Sequence record: MT764208.1
From: Escherichia phage JEP8
DNA: 64,000 nucleotides
Direction: 5' to 3' (one strand)
Shown here: positions 14,947-39,088 of the stretch, one piece after another
Layout: each line of letters opens with the position of its first letter
How positions within the stretch are numbered: the stretch's first letter is position 1
Notes under the pieces: generated by a model
Told to the model about the DNA's origin: nothing
The model's database searches: none
What the model saw: only the letters and a program-made list of their open reading frames with translations
Program-made: the position numbers and the translations under genes

Positions 14947-15771
14947 TTACCAACCTCGCTCTTTACCGATCAAAAATTCAACTTCACGACGTTTAATATC
15001 TTCTTGAAGGTCTTTAATCTTCTGGCGATCTTGCATGATTTCGTCCATCTTGTCAAGTGCTGTAATGAAATCATCGAAACGTTCAAAGGTTTTACCTTCA
15101 TTTGCTTCGCCAAATTTAACCATTGTCAGGCCGTAACGACTACTAAACAGACGTTTCAACTGTCCAACGATCTTAGAATCAGTAGTGACGACTTCCAATT
15201 CTTCTACTTCTTGAAAGAATTTTCTATCAGAATCAATAAACCAGCTAATTCCTTTATGGTCTTTATCTTCGGTTGCACTCATTAGAGTATGGTCTTTACC
15301 ATCAATTTCAATTACATCAATTTGCCCACATGGACTAACCTTTTTAACAGTAAAAGGTCTATAATTTATTGCTCGTGCAATAACATAATTAAGGTTTGAT
15401 ACGTTTTCAGCATAATGGCAGAAGTCGGTCATAGCATTCGCATCTTTCCAAGTATAAGTTTTACCAACTTCCCATTTCTGGGGAACTTCTTCGACTTCAC
15501 GAAAGAATTTTCTATCGAATGGACTAAAGAAATATGTTGCAGTCCAAATGTCTTTTCCTGTAGCAGTTTTCGCCGTATGATAAACACCGTCTAGCTCTAT
15601 TGCATCAATCCAACCGTTACCCTCGATCTCGATGATGGTAAATGGCTTGTCACCAATAGCTGCACTAATATCGCTGTTAAGTGGAGAAAGAACACCTTCT
15701 CCGTTAGTAATAAACTCAGTTTTAGCGTTTTCGTCTTTCCAAGTGTAAGTTTTACCAATTTCCCATTTCAT
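14947..15771 (-). CDS. Hypothetical protein with two tandem WEVGKTY domains
   Basis: Two internal copies: WEIGKTYTWKDENAKTEF...IELDG...DRKFFREVEE and WEVGKTYTWKDANAMTDF...IEIDGK...DRKFFQEVEE. Confidence 0.65.
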   Translation of the reverse strand: MKWEIGKTYTWKDENAKTEFITNGEGVLSPLNSDISAAIGDKPFTIIEIEGNGWIDAIELDGVYHTAKTATGKDIWTATYFFSPFDRKFFREVEEVPQKWEVGKTYTWKDANAMTDFCHYAENVSNLNYVIARAINYRPFTVKKVSPCGQIDVIEIDGKDHTLMSATEDKDHKGISWFIDSDRKFFQEVEELEVVTTDSKIVGQLKRLFSSRYGLTMVKFGEANEGKTFERFDDFITALDKMDEIMQDRQKIKDLQEDIKRREVEFLIGKERGW

Positions 15772-15783
15772 AATATATTCCCC

Positions 15784-16284
15784 TTAACCGATTTTATCAA
15801 GTTCGTTTAATGCTTTCTCTGCTTCCTGTATAGCTTGCACTCTTTCCGGCATTTTGTCAAGAAAATCTTTCAACTCTTCAAAACTGGAGATATGACGCAA
15901 GGCATTAGCACCGATAGCCGCATGTGATTTGCATTCAAAGCGGATTTTATAATTATCCATAGCCAATTTGAGAAGATCAATTAGATCATGTTCATGACCA
16001 GGCAATAAAACTTCTTTGAAGCACGCTCGGTCGTCATCGGAAAACCATATATTATCACCAACATCGATAGAACTAATATAATCCCCTTCGTGATTATAGA
16101 TTGAACGTACATTACCCCAACGGTCTACCGTAGCGACAGTAAATGGTTTATCTAGATATGTAAACACACCATCAATATTAGGTTTTTGTTCGTAACGCCA
16201 ACAATCACGCAAAATACGCTTTTCGTCCTCACCAACCAACTTATATGTCTTCCCTTCTTCCCATTTCATAATATCATCTCTCAT
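15784..16284 (-). CDS. Hypothetical protein, WEVGKTY-domain paralog family
   Basis: WEEGKTYKLVGEDEK...; C-terminal helical region resembles that of 16274..16810. Confidence 0.6.
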   Translation of the reverse strand: MRDDIMKWEEGKTYKLVGEDEKRILRDCWRYEQKPNIDGVFTYLDKPFTVATVDRWGNVRSIYNHEGDYISSIDVGDNIWFSDDDRACFKEVLLPGHEHDLIDLLKLAMDNYKIRFECKSHAAIGANALRHISSFEELKDFLDKMPERVQAIQEAEKALNELDKIG

Positions 16285-16810
16285 TTTTGATACGTGATTC
16301 TAATTGGATCATACGGTCGCGCGTTTGCTTATATTCGCGGATAGCACCGATTCGGCTAGGCATACCATCCAGTACGCTCTTAATACCTTCTAGGGTAGTG
16401 ATTTTAGCAATGCTATTATGCAATCCTGTCTTATCGATCAACTGAATGTCGTAGGCTTCCATAAGCAGACCCAGACGTTCTAAAGTTAGGTCTTCTTCTT
16501 TTTCTTCCGATTCTGGAATCTTAGGTTCAATAGTAACTTCGGTAAAGAAACGACGCTCACCAGCCCAAAACCACACACCGGAACAGCCAATAGGGGATTC
16601 TTTTAACGTCATAGAGTCGAAATCACTACCAATAATAGTAATTTCTCTAACATCACCATCATCGTCAATGTCTTCTACCATAAACGGGCGACCAGCCAAC
16701 AAGTCCACAATACATCTGTTAATAGACGACGAAAATTTAGTCAGTTCGGCTTTCGACGCTTCGCATTCAATCTTGTAAGTTTTACCAACTTCCCATTCCA
16801 TAATAATCAC
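16274..16810 (-). CDS. Hypothetical protein, WEVGKTY-domain paralog family
   Basis: WEVGKTYKIECEASKAEL...RRFFTEV... Confidence 0.6.
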   Translation of the reverse strand: MIIMEWEVGKTYKIECEASKAELTKFSSSINRCIVDLLAGRPFMVEDIDDDGDVREITIIGSDFDSMTLKESPIGCSGVWFWAGERRFFTEVTIEPKIPESEEKEEDLTLERLGLLMEAYDIQLIDKTGLHNSIAKITTLEGIKSVLDGMPSRIGAIREYKQTRDRMIQLESRIKNER

Positions 16811-16811
16811 C

Positions 16812-17315
16812 TCAAATAATTTTCACTGGAATACTATTAACAATCTTGTATTGTACTTGATTGTCAGACCCCCGCCACGGCTTCTTCGTTGGCATATCTT
16901 TAATATAACGCCCATCGATGAACATGTCAACTGATTCTACAATTTTTCTTTGCTCATCATTCAATTGGTCAAGGGTATAACCGGACCATAGCCAAATATC
17001 TTTATTTGGCATCCATGATTTTACTTCATCGATGATCCGCTGTACACCCTTTAAATTGCGTTTATACAGTGGATCGCCACCTAAGAATGTTAGCCCCTGA
17101 ATAAAATCAGGACTAAGCAGATCCAGAATCAATCCCATTGTATCATCGGTGAATGGTTCCCCGTTCTTAGGATTGAGTATACTGGAATTAAAACAACCAT
17201 CACATGCGTGTGAACATCCGGTAACGTAAAGGGAGACTCTCACTCCCTCACCGTTAACCATATCACAATCTTTAATATCGGCATAGCGTAGTTTGCCGTA
17301 TGTATCAGAACTCAT
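16812..17315 (-). CDS. nrdG: Anaerobic ribonucleotide reductase activating protein NrdG (radical SAM)
   Basis: Radical-SAM cysteine triad CSHACDGC; ~167 aa. The ORF-track start is TTG, so the ATG at 17315 (MSSDTYGKL...) is used. Confidence 0.85.
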   Translation of the reverse strand: MSSDTYGKLRYADIKDCDMVNGEGVRVSLYVTGCSHACDGCFNSSILNPKNGEPFTDDTMGLILDLLSPDFIQGLTFLGGDPLYKRNLKGVQRIIDEVKSWMPNKDIWLWSGYTLDQLNDEQRKIVESVDMFIDGRYIKDMPTKKPWRGSDNQVQYKIVNSIPVKII

Positions 17316-17499
17316 ATTCAATTACCCCGAACTCGTTTACAATCTGCGCTTTATAGTAACCACCGCGAGATGCCAATAGATAAGCTGGTCTTAGGTATTC
17401 GTATTCACGGATTTCTACTTGTGCGTTTTCAGTTTCCCAAATCAGTAAAGTCCACATATTTGATTCTCCTGTAAAGTTGTATCTCGTCTTGATGAATAT

Positions 17500-23330: not shown

Positions 23331-23804
23331 CTATCTTAAACTTTTTATGAATTGTTTCTTATACTTCTTCGTGATCTCTTCTCTTGTATCAGCGTCGCAG
23401 TAATCGAAACCTTCTGCGTCCATAATAGCAACCATCTCCGCGCGGGTCAAGCGTGAAAATAGTTTTACTTTATCAACGGCATATTGAGGATGTAAATGAT
23501 TGTTGGTGTAGTCTCCTTTGATGTAATTAACATAGTTTGTAGCCCAAACAACGAAATCAGCACCTAAAGCACCAACACCAAACCGCTTAAAGTCTCCGGT
23601 CAACGATCCTTCTAGGCGGTTGCAACACGAATGAAGCAATCCCCTTACGCGGCCTTGCCCTTTCCCATCTAGATCATGATCATGGTCAAGATGGTTTTTG
23701 CTCATATCCTCAAAAAGTGGCAATTGACAAAGGGGGCAAATGCCCCCCTGTTTTTCGAATAGTTCTTGTTTGTACTCTTTAGCACTCTTAGCAGTCAGTA
23801 ACAT
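23331..23804 (-). CDS. 49: Endonuclease VII (Holliday junction resolvase) gp49
   Basis: MLLTAKSAKEYKQ...CPLCQ...HLDHDH...GLLHSCCN matches T4 endonuclease VII; ATG at 23804 with GGAGGGTG RBS. Confidence 0.85.
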   Translation of the reverse strand: MLLTAKSAKEYKQELFEKQGGICPLCQLPLFEDMSKNHLDHDHDLDGKGQGRVRGLLHSCCNRLEGSLTGDFKRFGVGALGADFVVWATNYVNYIKGDYTNNHLHPQYAVDKVKLFSRLTRAEMVAIMDAEGFDYCDADTREEITKKYKKQFIKSLR

Positions 23805-34492: not shown

Positions 34493-34852
34493 TTAGTCAC
34501 GGGAAGACAACCCAGCCATAAAACGGCTTAACAGTGTGTCGCGATAAGCAAAGCATAATTGCTTATCAGGGGCAGTATCACACAGGTTGCGTTTTGTTTT
34601 AGCAAAGCTGGCAATACTCAGATCCCATGCTCGATTTTTTCGTTTTTCGTCTCGACCTTGTTTATATGCTTCATCAAGTTCGAGCGCGATAAAATCACTA
34701 CACATGTTATCATCATCACAGAAAGTTTTAATGATCTTTTTGTTGATCTCAAATCCTTTGTATTCGAACTTTGGATAAGGGCGCTCATTACTAGCAAGCG
34801 CACCAGCCGAGAACATCATAACAATCATAGCAATTATTGTCAACTTTTTCAT
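34493..34852 (-). CDS. Hypothetical secreted protein
   Basis: Signal peptide MKKLTIIAMIVMMFSAGALA. Confidence 0.5.
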   Translation of the reverse strand: MKKLTIIAMIVMMFSAGALASNERPYPKFEYKGFEINKKIIKTFCDDDNMCSDFIALELDEAYKQGRDEKRKNRAWDLSIASFAKTKRNLCDTAPDKQLCFAYRDTLLSRFMAGLSSRD

Positions 34853-34859
34853 ATATTCC

Positions 34860-35450
34860 TCAATAGCGTTTAGTCTTAAGAATGCCTTTACTCTTTAGAT
34901 GGTTAGCCTTTTTTAGTACGTCATCAGCATAACCTAATCCGGCTTTATAGTTCCATCCAGCATTGTAAGAAGCTAGCGCGAGTCTGATATTACCGTTTCG
35001 AATATCCAGCCAGTATGCTAACTCATCCATCGCGTAGAATGCAGAAACCTCGCGATTCATGATAAAGTTGATAGTCTGGCGATCACTCATTTTAACACCG
35101 CGCTTTGCATTTTTCGCTTTCACCGTTTTAAGGTAATTTTGAAATAATCCATAAGCATGATGATTTTTCTTTGGTGCTAAGTTTGCACCCGCGCTTGATT
35201 CTTGCCATGCGATACCCGCCAGGATGTGACCTAAACCCTTTCCGTTATAGCGAATATTCGGATGGTACTTTTTCAACTTACCGCTTTTCTCGAATTGCTC
35301 GCCGTATTGATAGGCGAAATGTAAATTATCTAGTTGGTGTGCTGTAAAGTTGTCTATCGGCGCTTTTTTGATCGGTGCGCTAGTCGATGCGTGTGTAGCA
35401 CCAACGGCTAGTGACAGACTCAATACTATCGCTTTTAGAACTTTTAACAT
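34860..35450 (-). CDS. Secreted lytic transglycosylase (SLT)-domain protein
   Basis: Signal peptide MLKVLKAIVLSLSLAVGATHA; SLT-like motifs IAWQESS and AYGLFQ. Confidence 0.6.
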   Translation of the reverse strand: MLKVLKAIVLSLSLAVGATHASTSAPIKKAPIDNFTAHQLDNLHFAYQYGEQFEKSGKLKKYHPNIRYNGKGLGHILAGIAWQESSAGANLAPKKNHHAYGLFQNYLKTVKAKNAKRGVKMSDRQTINFIMNREVSAFYAMDELAYWLDIRNGNIRLALASYNAGWNYKAGLGYADDVLKKANHLKSKGILKTKRY

Positions 35451-35535
35451 TAATTTCTCCTGTTTGGCTTAACTTTCTGATTTCATAATATAGCCCTATC
35501 ACCAGAAAGTCAAGCATTAACTCAACCAATTTCCA

Positions 35536-35958
35536 TTATTGGTCTACCTTCAAAACAACCGCCGACATTTTACCCGCCAGTCGTTTTGGATTCTCTATAA
35601 TCATTCGGCAGCATAGACCGTGATATGGCTTACCCTCTTCGATTAGATCTACTGTCATCCCGATCCACATGTTACCGTCAGTAATTTCTAATCGATTAGG
35701 TCGGTCTTCCATTTTCAGGAAGTCGAAGATCTCCGGCAAACGAGTTTCTATCTTATTGAATAGTTCCATTGTCTTATGTTCATCGATATGACGATCGGTT
35801 AGACGGTCGATCATATGCGGACTAAAGCGAATGAAAATATACTCGCCGTAACCATCATTCAAGCACTTTTCTTTGATCTGCGCATTGGTTTTGCGCATTT
35901 CGGTTTCGAAGAATCTACGCAGCTTACTACGGCGAACATGTACGTTAATTGTTTCCAT
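35536..35958 (-). CDS. regB: Endoribonuclease RegB
   Basis: From the internal Met: METINVHVRRSKLRRFFE...RLEITDGNMWIGMTV...CRMIIENPKRLAGKMSAVVLK matches T4 RegB. Confidence 0.8.
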   Translation of the reverse strand: METINVHVRRSKLRRFFETEMRKTNAQIKEKCLNDGYGEYIFIRFSPHMIDRLTDRHIDEHKTMELFNKIETRLPEIFDFLKMEDRPNRLEITDGNMWIGMTVDLIEEGKPYHGLCCRMIIENPKRLAGKMSAVVLKVDQ

Positions 35959-35962
35959 TTTA

Positions 35963-36298
35963 TTATCCTTTCTTAAACAAATTGCGAAGCCAGTATACAA
36001 ACGGGATTTCTTTAAACTTGAACTTGTCAATAGTTAATTCTTTAGTAGCAAGATGAATACCATAAGCATCATGTGTAACTATATGCCATTTTCTATAGTC
36101 CAAATGTGAACAACCGTCTGGATCTAGGTTAATAAGAGTTTCTCGCTCACTAGGATTATTTTTCCACAATTTTGTAATAGGATCGCACATAATTCGACCT
36201 AGCGTACCATGAATAATCTCACAACGGTAAAGTTTTCCAGCAGTGAGATAGGCGCACCCGTCATAGTCGGTATAAACAAACACTTCTTTAACACTCAT
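35963..36298 (-). CDS. Hypothetical protein, DGxCSHL small-paralog family
   Basis: DPDGCSHLDYRKWHIV; start at the ATG with AGGAGTATTAAA leader (the ORF-track start overlaps the promoter). Confidence 0.5.
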   Translation of the reverse strand: MSVKEVFVYTDYDGCAYLTAGKLYRCEIIHGTLGRIMCDPITKLWKNNPSERETLINLDPDGCSHLDYRKWHIVTHDAYGIHLATKELTIDKFKFKEIPFVYWLRNLFKKG

Positions 36299-36319
36299 TT
36301 TAATACTCCTTTGTTTCGA

Positions 36320-36355
36320 TGGGGGTATATTACTACCCCCGATCATGTGTGTCAA
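36320..36355 (-). promoter_or_regulatory. sigma70-type early promoter cassette (TTGACA-N17-TAATAT)
   Basis: Minus strand TTGACA (36355..36350) followed by TAATAT and the CCCAUCGAAACAAAGGAG leader. Confidence 0.5.
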
Positions 36356-36616
36356 CTACTTTTTCAAGATTTTTTTGATCACATTCCAAAGACCTTTATT
36401 CTCAGGTTGTTTTGGTTCTTCGATCAGTGTCCATGTTCGACCGTCTAAGTGTGCACAATTTTTAAGACAAATAAAAATCTGGTGTCCCTTATCATCACGG
36501 ATATAACCACTATTCGCAAATCTTTCATGTGGTGTATATTCATACAGTGTATTTGGTGTAATATACTTGCGGTTACTATAAGGTGTCATCACATACATCA
36601 TGGTACTAACTCCCAT
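36356..36616 (-). CDS. Hypothetical protein, DGxCSHL small-paralog family
   Basis: GYIRDDKGHQIFICLKNCAHLDGRTWTL. Confidence 0.5.
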   Translation of the reverse strand: MGVSTMMYVMTPYSNRKYITPNTLYEYTPHERFANSGYIRDDKGHQIFICLKNCAHLDGRTWTLIEEPKQPENKGLWNVIKKILKK

Positions 36617-36792
36617 TTATCACCGCGAAGATGAGAACATCCACCATCAAGAAGGATCGTAATACGAAACCCCGCATCATCTTCAATATACCCGATAGTC
36701 GGTGGATGTTCGTCGTCTCGTGCCGGGGTAAAATCATACATCTTCCCCGGTGTGATATCATTGCCTTTATTGCTATTGGTATAAACTTGCAT
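36598..36792 (-). CDS. Hypothetical protein, DGxCSHL small-paralog family
   Basis: GYIEDDAGFRITILLDGGCSHLRGDKWEL. Confidence 0.5.
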   Translation of the reverse strand: MQVYTNSNKGNDITPGKMYDFTPARDDEHPPTIGYIEDDAGFRITILLDGGCSHLRGDKWELVP

Positions 36793-36813
36793 TTTCTTAA
36801 TCTCCTATATTAA

Positions 36814-37512
36814 CTAACCACGGGTATAGTGTTCCAGAACAACTGTCAGATGAATATATTCTAATAGATCTTTCCAAAAGTCAACATCTGGTTCTTCCGG
36901 CATACCGTTTTTCTTTGCCTCTTCACGAGCGAGTTTAACACGCTCGTAGAGATCTTTCAATTCTTCCCGCACATTATCAAAGGTTCTTTCTCCTAACTTA
37001 CACGCTAAAATCGAAGAACGTCTCGCGAGCGGGAATTGTATATCACCTGTCTGATAGATTTCAAGTAGCTGATAACCAACACGCAGAGCATGAGAAAGAT
37101 CTTTCCAGTTACTGAAATACTTTTCAGATTTGGCTACCTGTTTCTTGAGATAACCAGACAAACCCCACATACCAACATGATAGAATTTATCGCGATGTGT
37201 TCGGATGTATTCCCATTCTCTGGAGGATTCAACCAACATGTTACTAGGCGCGTGCACCATGTCAATAGCACCGATATCGCCTTTACATGCCAGATTGATA
37301 AACCGTTTTAGACTGAACATATTAACGTCAATATCGTCTTTGGTGTTCTTGATACCTTGACCGCTAGTGCTTTGGTCATAGTGTTCTTTCATCGATCCTA
37401 AGATAATTTCTTTCGCAGTCGGAACAAAGATACCACGATAATCTTTATCGGAATTTTCAGTATCAAGGCCGTATAAGTGAGACCCGAAGACCATTTTAAC
37501 CATTGTATGCAT
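36814..37512 (-). CDS. Nucleotidyltransferase-fold protein (Pol-beta superfamily)
   Basis: N-terminal FGSHLYGLDTENSDKDYRGIFV (GS...D.D signature of Pol-beta-type NTases) with a helical C-terminal region; ATG with GAGGGT RBS. Confidence 0.6.
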   Translation of the reverse strand: MHTMVKMVFGSHLYGLDTENSDKDYRGIFVPTAKEIILGSMKEHYDQSTSGQGIKNTKDDIDVNMFSLKRFINLACKGDIGAIDMVHAPSNMLVESSREWEYIRTHRDKFYHVGMWGLSGYLKKQVAKSEKYFSNWKDLSHALRVGYQLLEIYQTGDIQFPLARRSSILACKLGERTFDNVREELKDLYERVKLAREEAKKNGMPEEPDVDFWKDLLEYIHLTVVLEHYTRG

Positions 37513-37598
37513 AATTAAACCCTCAGTTGATTAAGAGATTGCATCATACCATCATAAAAATAAAAAGCCAACCCTTTTCGGATTGGCTTGATGAAAAA

Positions 37599-38015
37599 TT
37601 AGAGAGATTCGGTAAAGGTACGAGCGATAACATCACGTTGCTGGTCTGGAGTCAGACTATTGAAGCGCACTGCGTAACCAGAAACGCGAATTGTAAGCTG
37701 CGGGTACTTCTCAGGATGTTCAACAGCGTCCAGCAACATTTCTCGTAACAATACATTAACATTCAAATGCTGACCACCTTCGACAACCGGAGCACCATTA
37801 TCTACAATGACAGGACGGAAGCTAGTTGTGTGCAGTGCCAGCGAATCGACGTCTTCTGCGGTGATCACATGGTCTTCTGCGAAAGTTTTACTAACAATTA
37901 CTTTAGCACCGATCAGTGCTTTCGGTTCGGATACCAGAATCATAGGCGCGAAGTGTCCACCAATAATAGTACCTTTATGCTCACCTTTCATGATTTGAAT
38001 TGCTTTAAATTCCAT
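37599..38015 (-). CDS. Autonomous glycyl radical cofactor (GrcA/YfiD-like)
   Basis: C-terminal [61 protein letters not shown] nearly matches E. coli YfiD, including the RVSGY glycyl-radical motif. Confidence 0.85.
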
Positions 38016-38698: not shown

Positions 38699-39088
38699 TT
38701 ATTTTGGATCTGGGTATTTGCTGTGTGGTAATTGTAGATGAGGACCATCTTTAAAACTAGTCCAATCCCCACCCCATTCAACAGGAACACCCAATTCTCG
38801 ACCAGCTTGTTTAAATGCATCAGCGATCATGCGGTAATATTTCATGTTCCATGTATCTTTATCTTTCGGATACGCTACAACGTCAACCGCGAAACCGTGA
38901 AGATGACGAGATTTCATAGTCTTAGATTTACCTTCCGCAACATATTTCTTTTGCGTTTCTAGACTACGCACACCTTCCGTAATACCAAAATCGACCGGAG
39001 TCAGTTCTAATGCACGATGAACGACTTTTACCAGGTCTGGATGTACACCAACAAGCCGATCTTTGCTTCTTTGAGATAATCTAAACAT
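38699..39088 (-). CDS. Peptidase M15-type endolysin (probable L-alanyl-D-glutamate endopeptidase)
   Basis: Zn-binding pattern SRHLHGFAVDV ... DGPH typical of M15 cell-wall peptidases; occupies the locus where T4 has lysozyme e; GGGGGTGA RBS. Confidence 0.7.
   Translation of the reverse strand: MFRLSQRSKDRLVGVHPDLVKVVHRALELTPVDFGITEGVRSLETQKKYVAEGKSKTMKSRHLHGFAVDVVAYPKDKDTWNMKYYRMIADAFKQAGRELGVPVEWGGDWTSFKDGPHLQLPHSKYPDPK

Follow-up and report, generated by a model that had tools for sequence, protein, structure and literature searches.

Gene content of the region upstream of regB

The window analyzed here, a 64-kb stretch of Escherichia phage JEP8 DNA (MT764208.1), belongs to a Krischvirus and is RB49/Phi1-like, with about 98% identity. 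Three small genes, designated A, B and C, are encoded on the minus strand between the endoribonuclease gene regB (35536..35958) and nrdC.11 (36814..37512), coding for a nucleotidyltransferase of the RlaP family. The ORFs that a preliminary description of the sequence had placed at 35963..36298, 36356..36616 and 36598..36792 are indeed present at these coordinates and between these two neighbours. They are equivalents of RB49p095-097 and are labelled hypothetical proteins in the RB49, GEC-3S and JSE records and in further ones.

nrdC.11 (minus strand, 232 aa, Pfam RlaP E 2e-14), which takes its name from the RB49 annotation, lies directly upstream of gene C. The latter (36598..36792, minus strand, RB49p097 equivalent) is preceded by a Shine-Dalgarno (SD) sequence GGAG at 36805-36802 and encodes a bare core domain of 64 aa, which is acidic (pI 4.6, net charge −5). 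In gene B (minus strand, RB49p096 equivalent) the core domain is followed by a linker rich in Pro and, at the C-terminus, by a basic amphipathic helix. It could start at ATG 36616 to give 86 aa, but the most likely start, as judged from the sequence, is ATG 36601, giving an 81-aa product (36356..36601), since this codon overlaps the TGA stop of C in an ATGA arrangement and is preceded by GGAG (36613-36610) 8 nt upstream. The profile phrog_15978 is also matched from its position 1 at residue 6 of the 86-aa form, and most annotators have chosen the shorter form (GEC-3S and others). Gene A (35963..36298, minus strand, 111 aa, RB49p095 equivalent; SD GGAG at 36309-36306) encodes the core domain with an insertion of approximately 10 residues, an extra β-hairpin and a tail modelled with low confidence. 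Its stop codon lies 4 nt before the ATG of regB (minus strand, 140 aa, Pfam REGB_T4 E 1e-48), the SD of which is GGAT; a GGAU SD has been noted for RB49 regB (PMC3014915).

The slot between vs.6/nrdC.11 and regB, occupied here by A, B and C, is variable. In T4 the corresponding slot from vs.6 (GrcA-like) to regB holds vs.5, vs.4 and vs.3, which are positional equivalents of A/B/C but demonstrated no sequence similarity to their family by HMM or tblastn. Vs.4 is Acb2, the anti-CBASS nucleotide sponge, so that the T4 slot holds a counter-defence gene.

Promoter elements

A promoter combined with a stem-loop (36321..36355, minus strand) was found between B and A. It comprises a −35 motif TTGACA (36355-36350), a 17-nt spacer, a −10 motif TAATAT (36332-36327) and the stem-loop GGGGGTA-gtaata-TACCCCC (36340-36321), which overlaps the −10 motif. 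The promoter scored 10/12 in the scan, the RNA folds with −15.8 kcal/mol (z −2.7), and the whole pattern is unique in the window, with 0 occurrences expected by chance. The −35 motif, the stem, the −10 motif and the SD are essentially unchanged across 11 Krischvirus sequences, and the GEC-3S record has a promoter annotated at this site. Going by its sequence, the element fits the definition of a PeSL given by Arbiol et al. 2010, i.e. a sigma70 consensus promoter that is joined, between genes of a hyperplastic region, to a stable polyG/polyC stem-loop (PMC2839356). The architecture before A, in a variable region of RB49 type, is just that of the PeSL and ORFan cassettes of RB49 and phi1 (PMC2839356, PMC4122927), but A has a PeSL on one side only since regB directly follows it. 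In the searched text of Arbiol et al. 2010 (PMC2839356) the A, B and C ORFs are not mentioned.

Upstream of nrdC.11, on the same strand, a terminator-like hairpin (37589-37565) with a T-run behind it overlaps a sigma70-like promoter (37571-37543); the GEC-3S and G2494 records have a terminator annotated at the hairpin site. The 37543..37589 segment is the probable start of an nrdC.11-C-B transcription unit. No promoter of regB's own is present in the 4-nt gap after A, and A and regB are probably co-transcribed from the PeSL promoter. The sigma70-type promoter sequences point to early expression of all three genes.

A, B and C are homologous and under purifying selection

The similarity of the three products was confirmed by several approaches. 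BLASTP aligned B with C at E=3e-12 (40% identity over 63 aa) and A with C at E=6e-5 (33% identity over 67 aa), and A with B in short segments only (E=2e-3). In Smith-Waterman alignments with shuffled controls the B-C similarity (z=17.8, 0/5000 shuffles as good) and the A-C similarity (z=5.9, 1/5000) were significant and that of A-B was weaker (z=3.7, 31/5000). The profile phrog_6261 was matched by A (E 1.1e-37, profile positions 1-73), C (E 1.8e-29) and B (E 5.7e-6), and phrog_15978 by B (E 4.4e-60). An HMM built from 117 family members recognized A, B and C with E values of 1e-16, 3e-28 and 2e-23, respectively, and no other copy in the 64-kb window. The WEVGKTY family encoded at 14947-16810, from which the preliminary description had distinguished these proteins, is unrelated to them according to hhalign (probability 0.4%).

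A and C are present in 58/58 matching phage records with 86-100% aa identity, each record having two C-related places; in the 12 Krischvirus records that were checked in detail, A, B and C were all confirmed. The pN/pS ratios of A (0.13), B (0.28) and C (0.26) are well below 1, which indicates purifying selection. The weak A-B similarity taken by itself (E 2e-3, z 3.7) could suggest that the resemblance arose by chance or that the ORFs are non-coding; the probability of this is negligible given the profile matches, the shuffle controls, the 154 clusters of homologues described below, the low pN/pS, the plausible SDs and the confident fold prediction. A, B and C are real protein-coding genes of Krischvirus and anciently diverged members of one widespread phage protein family.

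The wider family

The family is not local to JEP8: an exhaustive profile search yielded 154 clusters (50% identity, E<=1e-3) from diverse phages. Its members are mostly stand-alone proteins of 58-70 aa and mostly acidic (median pI 4.9), with the consensus ..YITAGKxYE..IxDDxG..I.L..CAHLxGxxWEVVE. The core of approximately 60 aa carries the signature T-x-G-K-x-Y ... D-D-x-G ... C-(A/S)-H-L-x-G-x-x-W-x-(V/I)-(V/I), in which, by the numbering of C, Y19 and W60 are invariant and T14, K17, D39 and H54 are conserved in more than 90%. All seven signature residues (T14, K17, Y19, D39, C52, H54 and W60) are present in C and, at aligned positions, in A; B has all but K17, as it reads TPNTLY. Of the motif originally proposed to be common to the three proteins, the GYIxDDxG half is shared by B and C alone, as A has an insertion at this place.

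The two PHROG entries to which A/B/C belong, phrog_6261 (matched by 109/117 members) and phrog_15978 (90/117), divide one family into two, record neither function nor fold, and are without the multi-copy habit, the regB linkage and the SH3-like model found here. Several copies occur together at loci L005, L012, L017 and L022, and the single proteins P0018, P0039 and P0060 contain 2-4 family repeats each. Outside T4-like phages the members were found in arrays of small ORFs beside RecT/SSB, ERF/YqaJ or exonuclease genes; the only recurrent neighbour at the non-T4-like loci was the large terminase (within 4 kb, 4 loci), which is not informative.

Searches with A, B and C matched no Pfam family at E<=1. 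The 117 members (E<=0.01) and 10 long fusion proteins gave sub-threshold Pfam matches only, to DUF6501 in 4 members and to Tudor_5 in 1, and the sole hint of a fusion was a Tad2-like region in P0104 (20 bits vs the Pfam cut-off of 25). PDB sequence searches with the family profiles A2 and A3 yielded no meaningful match, and word-indexed protein searches retrieved unnamed proteins without Pfam domains; in all, the Pfam, PDB and protein searches revealed no named homologue and no solved structure of the family. Nothing on A/B/C was found in the literature on Krischvirus/RB49 anti-defence. Three hypothetical proteins of RB49-type phages are thereby assigned to one family of at least 154 clusters that is without a Pfam entry and merits a domain definition.

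A zinc site formed by C10, C52 and H54 was considered and rejected, as there is no fourth conserved Cys/His column. C10 occurs in 44/117 members, with no correlated column.

Predicted fold

The AF2 model of C (pLDDT 88.8) shows the SH3-like order of elements: strand, long loop, strand, loop, strand, tight turn, strand, 3-10 helix and strand, the strands being placed at residues 2-4, 19-23, 33-37, 43-47 and 61-63 and the 3-10 helix at 53-55. In the model of A the core has pLDDT above 90 and the tail, with a helix at 99-109, below 55. From these models we infer that the core is an SH3-like five-stranded small β-barrel, in which the distal hairpin would be made by DDxG and the 3-10 helix that precedes the final strand by C(A/S)HL.

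Foldseek against PDB gave no match at E<=1e-3 for the A or C model; the best ones were SH3, Tudor and myosin-SH3 domains, all weak (E 0.5-1.5, TM 0.38-0.45), and weak matches to the SH3-like domains of Pif1 and Sen1 were also obtained. In BFVD many small uncharacterised phage proteins were found at TM 0.6-0.8 to the model of C, among the neighbours being a DUF7244 protein (TM 0.67, E 0.13). DUF7244 belongs to the SH3 clan of Pfam (PMC13164509), and an SH3-like fold of the family is probable on the strength of the models. Like A/B/C, the DUF7244 proteins of Drexlerviridae are stand-alone phage proteins of approximately 60-70 aa with a predicted SH3-like barrel (PMC13164509), but no sequence match to them was obtained from A/B/C or the 117 members, and they are linked to lysis cassettes whereas A/B/C lie in an early accessory region. 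By inspection, no N-terminal signal peptide is evident in A, B or C, so binding to the cell wall in the periplasm is unlikely.

Origin of the three copies

The three genes had been regarded as locally duplicated. A recent tandem triplication in situ, which would make them young, diverging and possibly redundant or decaying duplicates, would account for their adjacency on one strand, and further observations speak for it: B and C recombine, the metagenomic contig L007 having a C::B hybrid gene in which the crossover falls within the GYIxDD motif, a 14-nt deletion truncates C in FL04, and B and C evolve faster than the neighbouring genes. Pairwise identity is only 33-40%, however, and when 119 family sequences were ranked, A, B and C did not turn out to be each other's closest relatives. 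For A, gene product C came 63rd and B 93rd; its best matches were metagenomic and Vibrio-phage members with about 41 bits vs 24 bits for C, and many foreign members are closer to A than B or C are. The nearest relatives of A, P0041 and P0115, are on contigs whose shortness leaves their gene context uninformative. C ranked B 16th and B ranked C 30th. Separate B-type and C-type orthologues occur in diverged lineages, and the three genes are essentially universal in Krischvirus and under purifying selection. A recent triplication is thus very improbable.

B and C rather represent an old duplication, since B-type and C-type orthologues occur together in the diverged T4-like contig L008 (RlaP, P0012, P0021) and other lineages have a single C-type copy. 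The ranking suggests that A, behind its own PeSL cassette, is either an ancient paralogue or a separate acquisition. The locus shows how a T4-type hyperplastic slot is filled: it has a PeSL cassette, old paralogues have been retained next to each other, and a C::B hybrid has arisen in nature.

Linkage to regB

A family member lies just upstream of regB in every T4-like locus recovered whose sequence extends far enough downstream: P0013 in L005, P0017 in L010/L011, P0019 (after Gly_radical and HNH genes) in L012 and A in L007, while in L009, and in this contig only, one ORF intervenes between P0014 and RegB. The gaps between the member and regB are 12-52 nt in L005, L010 and L012. The adjacency is kept though RegB identity drops to 48-68% and RlaP is sometimes absent.

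This arrangement raises the question of whether the regB-adjacent members modulate RegB, either by inhibiting or timing it in the manner of an antitoxin or by linking it as an adaptor to ribosomal protein S1 or the ribosome, with A-regB as a toxin-antitoxin-like bicistron. Only 4 nt separate the end of A from the regB ATG, and the PeSL promoter is common to both genes. The C-type members are small and acidic like many antitoxins, and RegB has a RelE/YoeB-like fold; a review on T4 explicitly considers that an anti-RegB partner may still await discovery (PMC3014915). A would resemble type II antitoxins such as RelB and YefM in being a small gene directly upstream of a gene for a nuclease of the RelE/YoeB fold and in the conservation of this order across the T4-like lineages sampled.

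Neither the family nor the nuclease always accompanies the other, though. T4 and other non-Krischvirus T4-type phages in the collection have RegB without a family member: tblastn of the phage collection at E<=1 found only Krischvirus, Vibrio and Klebsiella phages, and T4 contained no member by HMM over positions 1-78000 and by tblastn alone for 78000-169000. No RegB was found in the flanks of ~22 non-T4-type loci (some 15 distinct phages). The T4-like loci are syntenic (vs.8, vs.6, ..., regB, vs.1), so the adjacency may be merely inherited, and the copy beside regB is of the A type in Krischvirus, against the C type in lineages with a single copy. The predicted β-barrel is unlike the RHH/Phd folds of known antitoxins, and with no Pfam match no typical DNA-binding domain was detected. 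Modulation of RegB by its neighbour is unlikely on balance. Its more specific form, that the regB-adjacent members (A and the single C-type copies) are co-translated anti-RegB or RegB-tuning partners that would bind RegB or S1 and time or restrict mRNA cleavage, is quite doubtful; if true, a phage mRNA interferase would here be paired with an antitoxin-like protein of new fold. A functional role of the position upstream of regB would bear on the open question of RegB control.

Possible role of the family

Many small β-barrels (Sm, Tudor, KOW, cold-shock-like) bind nucleic acids, and A/B/C might in this manner regulate the fate of early mRNA alongside RlaP/nrdC.11 and RegB. Both neighbouring genes act on RNA, the tails of A and B are basic (full-length pI 8.3 and 9.3, respectively), and the weak fold matches included the Pif1 and Sen1 SH3-like and Tudor domains. 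Such a role is hard to reconcile with a core that is acidic in most members (median pI 4.9; net charge of C −5) and has K17 as its only conserved basic position. An Rfam scan of 35400-37700 revealed no element, no RNA structure was found beside the genes, and there was no significant match to nucleic-acid-binding families. Nucleic-acid binding is accordingly held to be improbable.

The tiny core, the low median pI, the lack of a zinc site and the multi-copy and repeat habit argue for a binder rather than an enzyme or a nucleic-acid binder, and the sigma70 promoters, the PeSL, the small-ORF arrays and the presence of vs.5/vs.4/vs.3 in the T4 slot argue for an early, accessory character. We therefore favour, with a probability of about 0.55, the overall reading that A, B and C are real, anciently diverged members of one family with an SH3-like core and act as early non-catalytic binding modules. 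The cluster consists of sound, fairly ordinary accessory genes. The mechanism taken alone is more tentative: the proteins, made early from promoters used by the host RNA polymerase, would bind a host or phage protein or a ligand without catalysis, and would serve as accessories in host takeover or counter-defence. Binding could proceed through the conserved RT-loop/3-10-helix face with T14, K17, C52 and H54, which SH3 topology would place on one side, but the conserved residues could also be purely structural. If the family were made of counter-defence binders it would matter more, being abundant in environmental phages.

The copies share the core and differ in their C-terminal tails, which are absent from C and may be basic, Trp-containing amphipathic helices in B and A; these tails could bring the bound target to the membrane or a further partner and so make the copies non-redundant. 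Targeting helices of the MinD/FtsA type are basic amphipathic segments of the terminal 10-15 aa that are sufficient for membrane binding. In both A and B the extreme C-terminus is the strongest amphipathic segment. The helix of B, LWNVIKKILKK, has muH 0.78, a value reached by 1.4% of shuffles, and that of A, FVYWLRNLFKK, has muH 0.65, which is marginal as 7% of shuffles are as high. The similarity between the two tails is not significant in Smith-Waterman shuffles (z 0.4). The B-type tail is conserved in P0015, P0021 and P0009.

Three related genes between regB and nrdC.11

Genes A (35963-36298, 111 aa), B (36356-36616 as listed, 86 aa) and C (36598-36792, 64 aa) lie on the minus strand, as does every gene of this region, and each is preceded by a GGAG Shine-Dalgarno sequence. 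The preliminary description had placed them between regB and the nucleotidyltransferase gene, and the same placement, from nrdC.11 to regB, was found in RB49, where A, B and C correspond to RB49p095, RB49p096 and RB49p097, all annotated as hypothetical protein. B probably starts at the ATG at 36601 and thus encodes 81 aa, since this codon overlaps the stop codon of C (ATGA), is located 8 nt past GGAG, marks the beginning of the phrog_15978 profile and is the choice of most annotators.

The proposed relatedness of the three ORFs was confirmed by BLASTP (B-C, E=3e-12; A-C, E=6e-5; A-B, E=2e-3), by local alignment scores against 5000 shuffles (z=17.8, 5.9 and 3.7, respectively), by the matches of A, B and C to phrog_6261 (B also matched phrog_15978) and by an HMM derived from 117 members of the family, which detected exactly three copies, A, B and C, in the 64-kb window. 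The motif originally ascribed to all three proteins is common to them only in its C-terminal half, C(S/A)HL..(K/R/T)W.(I/L)(V/I), whereas the GYIxDDxG half is present in B and C only. The family is distinct from the WEVGKTY proteins, as had been stated (hhalign probability 0.4 %). The latter are encoded at 14947-16810 (-) by three adjacent genes of 274, 166 and 178 aa, the first with two internal repeats, and have an nrdG-like gene (16812-17321) immediately upstream.

The segment 35400-37600 was 97-98 % identical to Krischvirus genomes (Phi1, GEC-3S, RB49) and was matched by 58 records. A and C were present in all of them with 86-100 % amino acid identity, and each record contained two C-related places, the second being consistent with B. 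The pN/pS ratios were calculated for 11-13 Krischvirus sequences (the window, RB49, GEC-3S, ECD7, JSE, KMB43, G2494, FL38, PTE-Eco09, UPWr_E1 and SFHK24, with FL04 and metagenomic contig L007 added where the gene aligned full-length). The values of 0.13 for A, 0.28 for B and 0.26 for C demonstrate that all three genes are under purifying selection, with B and C evolving faster than the neighbouring regB (0.05) and nrdC.11 (0.03). A, B and C are three real, homologous genes. In Escherichia phage FL04 (L040:873-998) C is shortened by a deletion of 14 nt, and the annotation gives a 41-aa remnant; either FL04 can dispense with C or its assembly contains an error. The adjacent nrdC.11 (RlaP family; 36814-37512, -) encodes 232 aa in Krischvirus versus approximately 335 aa in T4 and in contig L005 (L005:847-1854), i.e. 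it is without roughly 100 residues of these versions.

A widespread family of small phage proteins

A word-indexed search retrieved close relatives only. When 1.84 billion representatives were searched exhaustively with a HMMER profile, 154 clusters were obtained at E<=1e-3; most are stand-alone proteins 58-70 aa long, and the median pI is 4.9. The family consensus is MKVKTDYxGCxYITAGKxYE...GYIxDDxGxxIxIxLxxCAHLxGxxWEVVE, in which Y19 and W60 are invariant, T14, K17, D39 and H54 are conserved in more than 90 % and C52 in 86 % of members. A zinc site was considered and is unlikely, as there is no fourth conserved Cys/His column. The domain is repeated two to four times within members P0018, P0039 and P0060, and some others carry unrelated C-terminal extensions. 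Isolated phages with members comprise Krischvirus, one Klebsiella Jedunavirus and Vibrio phages of ~135-141 kb (helene 12B3, eugene 12A10, F100 and others). Pfam, PDB and protein searches provided no name, Pfam domain or solved relative for any member, and the sole catalogue counterparts are phrog_6261 and phrog_15978, both without assigned function. The family is large, widespread and uncharacterised, a typical phage accessory ORFan family already listed in PHROGs as unknown and labelled hypothetical in GenBank.

Transcription signals

Between B and A a PeSL-type cassette (early promoter plus G/C stem-loop) is located at 36355-36321 (-), with consensus -35 (TTGACA) and -10 (TAATAT) motifs separated by 17 nt and a GGGGGTA/TACCCCC stem-loop overlapping the -10 motif (fold of -15.8 kcal/mol). 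This pattern is unique in the window and essentially invariant among 11 sequences of Krischvirus, the spacer from the -35 motif to the stem being the exception. It matches the PeSLs of RB49 and phi1, strong early promoters with G/C stem-loops that stop transcription arriving from upstream and serve in the shuffling of modules (PMC2839356), and establishes a PeSL-type element 5' of A. The only other GGGGG...CCCCC(C) inverted repeat in the window, GGGGGCAAATGCCCCCC at 23732-23748 (+), may be a further PeSL stem.

Upstream of nrdC.11, at 37589-37543 (-), a sigma70-like promoter has its -35 motif overlapped by a terminator-like hairpin, which consists of a 10-bp stem and a T-run behind it. The two form a second composite of promoter and stem-loop whose stem is A/T-richer than that of the PeSL. 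The positions of these two elements suggest nrdC.11-C-B and A-regB as the probable transcription units. regB starts 4 nt past A and is preceded by GGAT, a Shine-Dalgarno sequence already remarked for RB49 (PMC3014915). No Rfam family matched the A/B/C region.

Origin of the three copies

A, B and C diverged anciently and, in the ranking of matches, are not one another's nearest relatives. A was closest to metagenomic members and Vibrio phage F100 (~38-41 bits), with C ranked 63rd (24 bits) and B 93rd; C was closest to the C-type orthologues P0012, P0013, P0014, P0017 and P0019, with B ranked 16th; B was closest to the B-type orthologues P0015 and P0021, with C ranked 30th. One diverged T4-like contig carries RlaP, a C-type and a B-type copy in this order, and other T4-like contigs have a single C-type copy. 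By these rankings and contigs, B and C result from an old duplication. A, which has its own PeSL in front, either is a paralogue of ancient origin or was acquired separately. The term locally duplicated is correct only in a loose sense.

In metagenome scaffold_28569 from ENA (L007:45-296) B and C are replaced by a single hybrid gene encoding the 83-aa P0009, C-like in its 5' half and B-like in its 3' half, with the crossover inside the common GYIxDD motif and followed by the usual PeSL, A and regB. This structure indicates homologous recombination between the paralogues, a chimeric assembly being a less likely alternative.

Predicted fold and possible role

The AlphaFold2 model of C (mean pLDDT of 88.8) has five strands, at residues 2-4, 19-23, 33-37, 43-47 and 61-63. 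The first two are joined by a long loop, the second and third by another loop, the third and fourth by a tight turn (DDAG) and the last two by a 3-10 helix (SHL), which is the SH3 order. Foldseek found no significant match in PDB, the best being SH3, Tudor and myosin-SH3 domains (TM ~0.4); in BFVD many uncharacterised small phage proteins were matched (TM 0.6-0.8), one of them a DUF7244 protein, a family assigned to the SH3 clan in a 2026 paper (PMC13164509). The core is thus predicted to be, probably, an SH3-like small beta-barrel. In the model of A the core (pLDDT >90) is supplemented with an inserted helical segment and an extra hairpin, and the poorly predicted tail ends in helix 99-109.

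C is a bare domain, B has the tail EEPKQPENKG-LWNVIKKILKK, conserved in orthologues P0015, P0021 and P0009, and A has a tail of ~35 residues ending with FVYWLRNLFKK. In both B (muH 0.78) and A (0.65) no other 11-mer is as amphipathic as the one at the extreme C-terminus, and we take such basic, Trp-containing terminal helices to resemble membrane-targeting sequences.

A tiny, mostly acidic, non-catalytic barrel that occurs in multiple copies and intra-protein repeats, with variable tails and in early plastic regions, could act as a stoichiometric binding module that serves host takeover or counter-defence in an accessory capacity. T-x-G-K, with which the RT loop ends, and C-x-H-L in the 3-10 helix would then occupy the canonical SH3 ligand face. 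In our estimate the probability of this mechanism is roughly one in three. Binding of nucleic acids by these proteins is disfavoured by the acidic core.

Association with regB

In every T4-like contig reaching far enough downstream, a member was found just 5' of regB: RlaP, P0013, RegB and SLT in L005 (RegB 48 % identical to that of the window), P0017 and RegB in L010/L011 (68 %), Gly_radical, HNH, P0019 and RegB, without RlaP, in L012 (63 %), P0014, one ORF and RegB in L009 (68 %, partial), and the hybrid gene, A and RegB in L007 (99 %). A second copy is nearby in L005 and in L012. That the synteny of members with regB is conserved in RB49-related lineages is firmly established.

This adjacency, together with the RelE/YoeB-like fold of RegB and the anti-RegB protein raised as a possibility in a T4 review (PMC3014915), could mean that the members are RegB partners, which is the main rival to the binding-module mechanism. 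Such a partnership is improbable, as the co-occurrence of member and RegB fails both ways and the common synteny of the sampled lineages could account for the adjacency. No RegB homologue was detected in the flanks of non-T4-type loci L003, L004, L013, L015-L030, L032 and L041-L043, and neither tblastn nor an HMM search of positions 1-78000 found a family member in T4, whose vs.6-regB slot contains vs.5, vs.4 and vs.3 instead.

The only recurrent neighbour at non-T4-type loci was the large terminase (four loci), further contexts being small-ORF arrays near RecT/SSB, ERF/YqaJ or exonuclease genes. In Vibrio phage F100 (L003:3974-4532) the member is among three small ORFs between SbcD-like and SbcC-like exonuclease genes, an arrangement recalling the T4 order 47, 46.2, 46.1, 46.

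On the other side of nrdC.11, the vs.6 homologue (37599-38015, -) is of the autonomous glycyl radical cofactor type (GrcA/YfiD), with the glycyl-radical sequence ...RVSGYAVRF... at its C-terminus. An HNH/NUMOD4 homing endonuclease separates it from the next gene in related contigs L008 and L012, and a homing endonuclease is also present upstream of nrdC.11 in JSE. vs.1 (196 aa) and vs (119 aa), located at 34493-35450 (-), both have signal-peptide-like N-termini, with a weak SLT lytic-transglycosylase match for vs.1 in related contigs; together with an M15 endolysin at 38699-39088 they place envelope-directed proteins among the RNA enzymes of the region.
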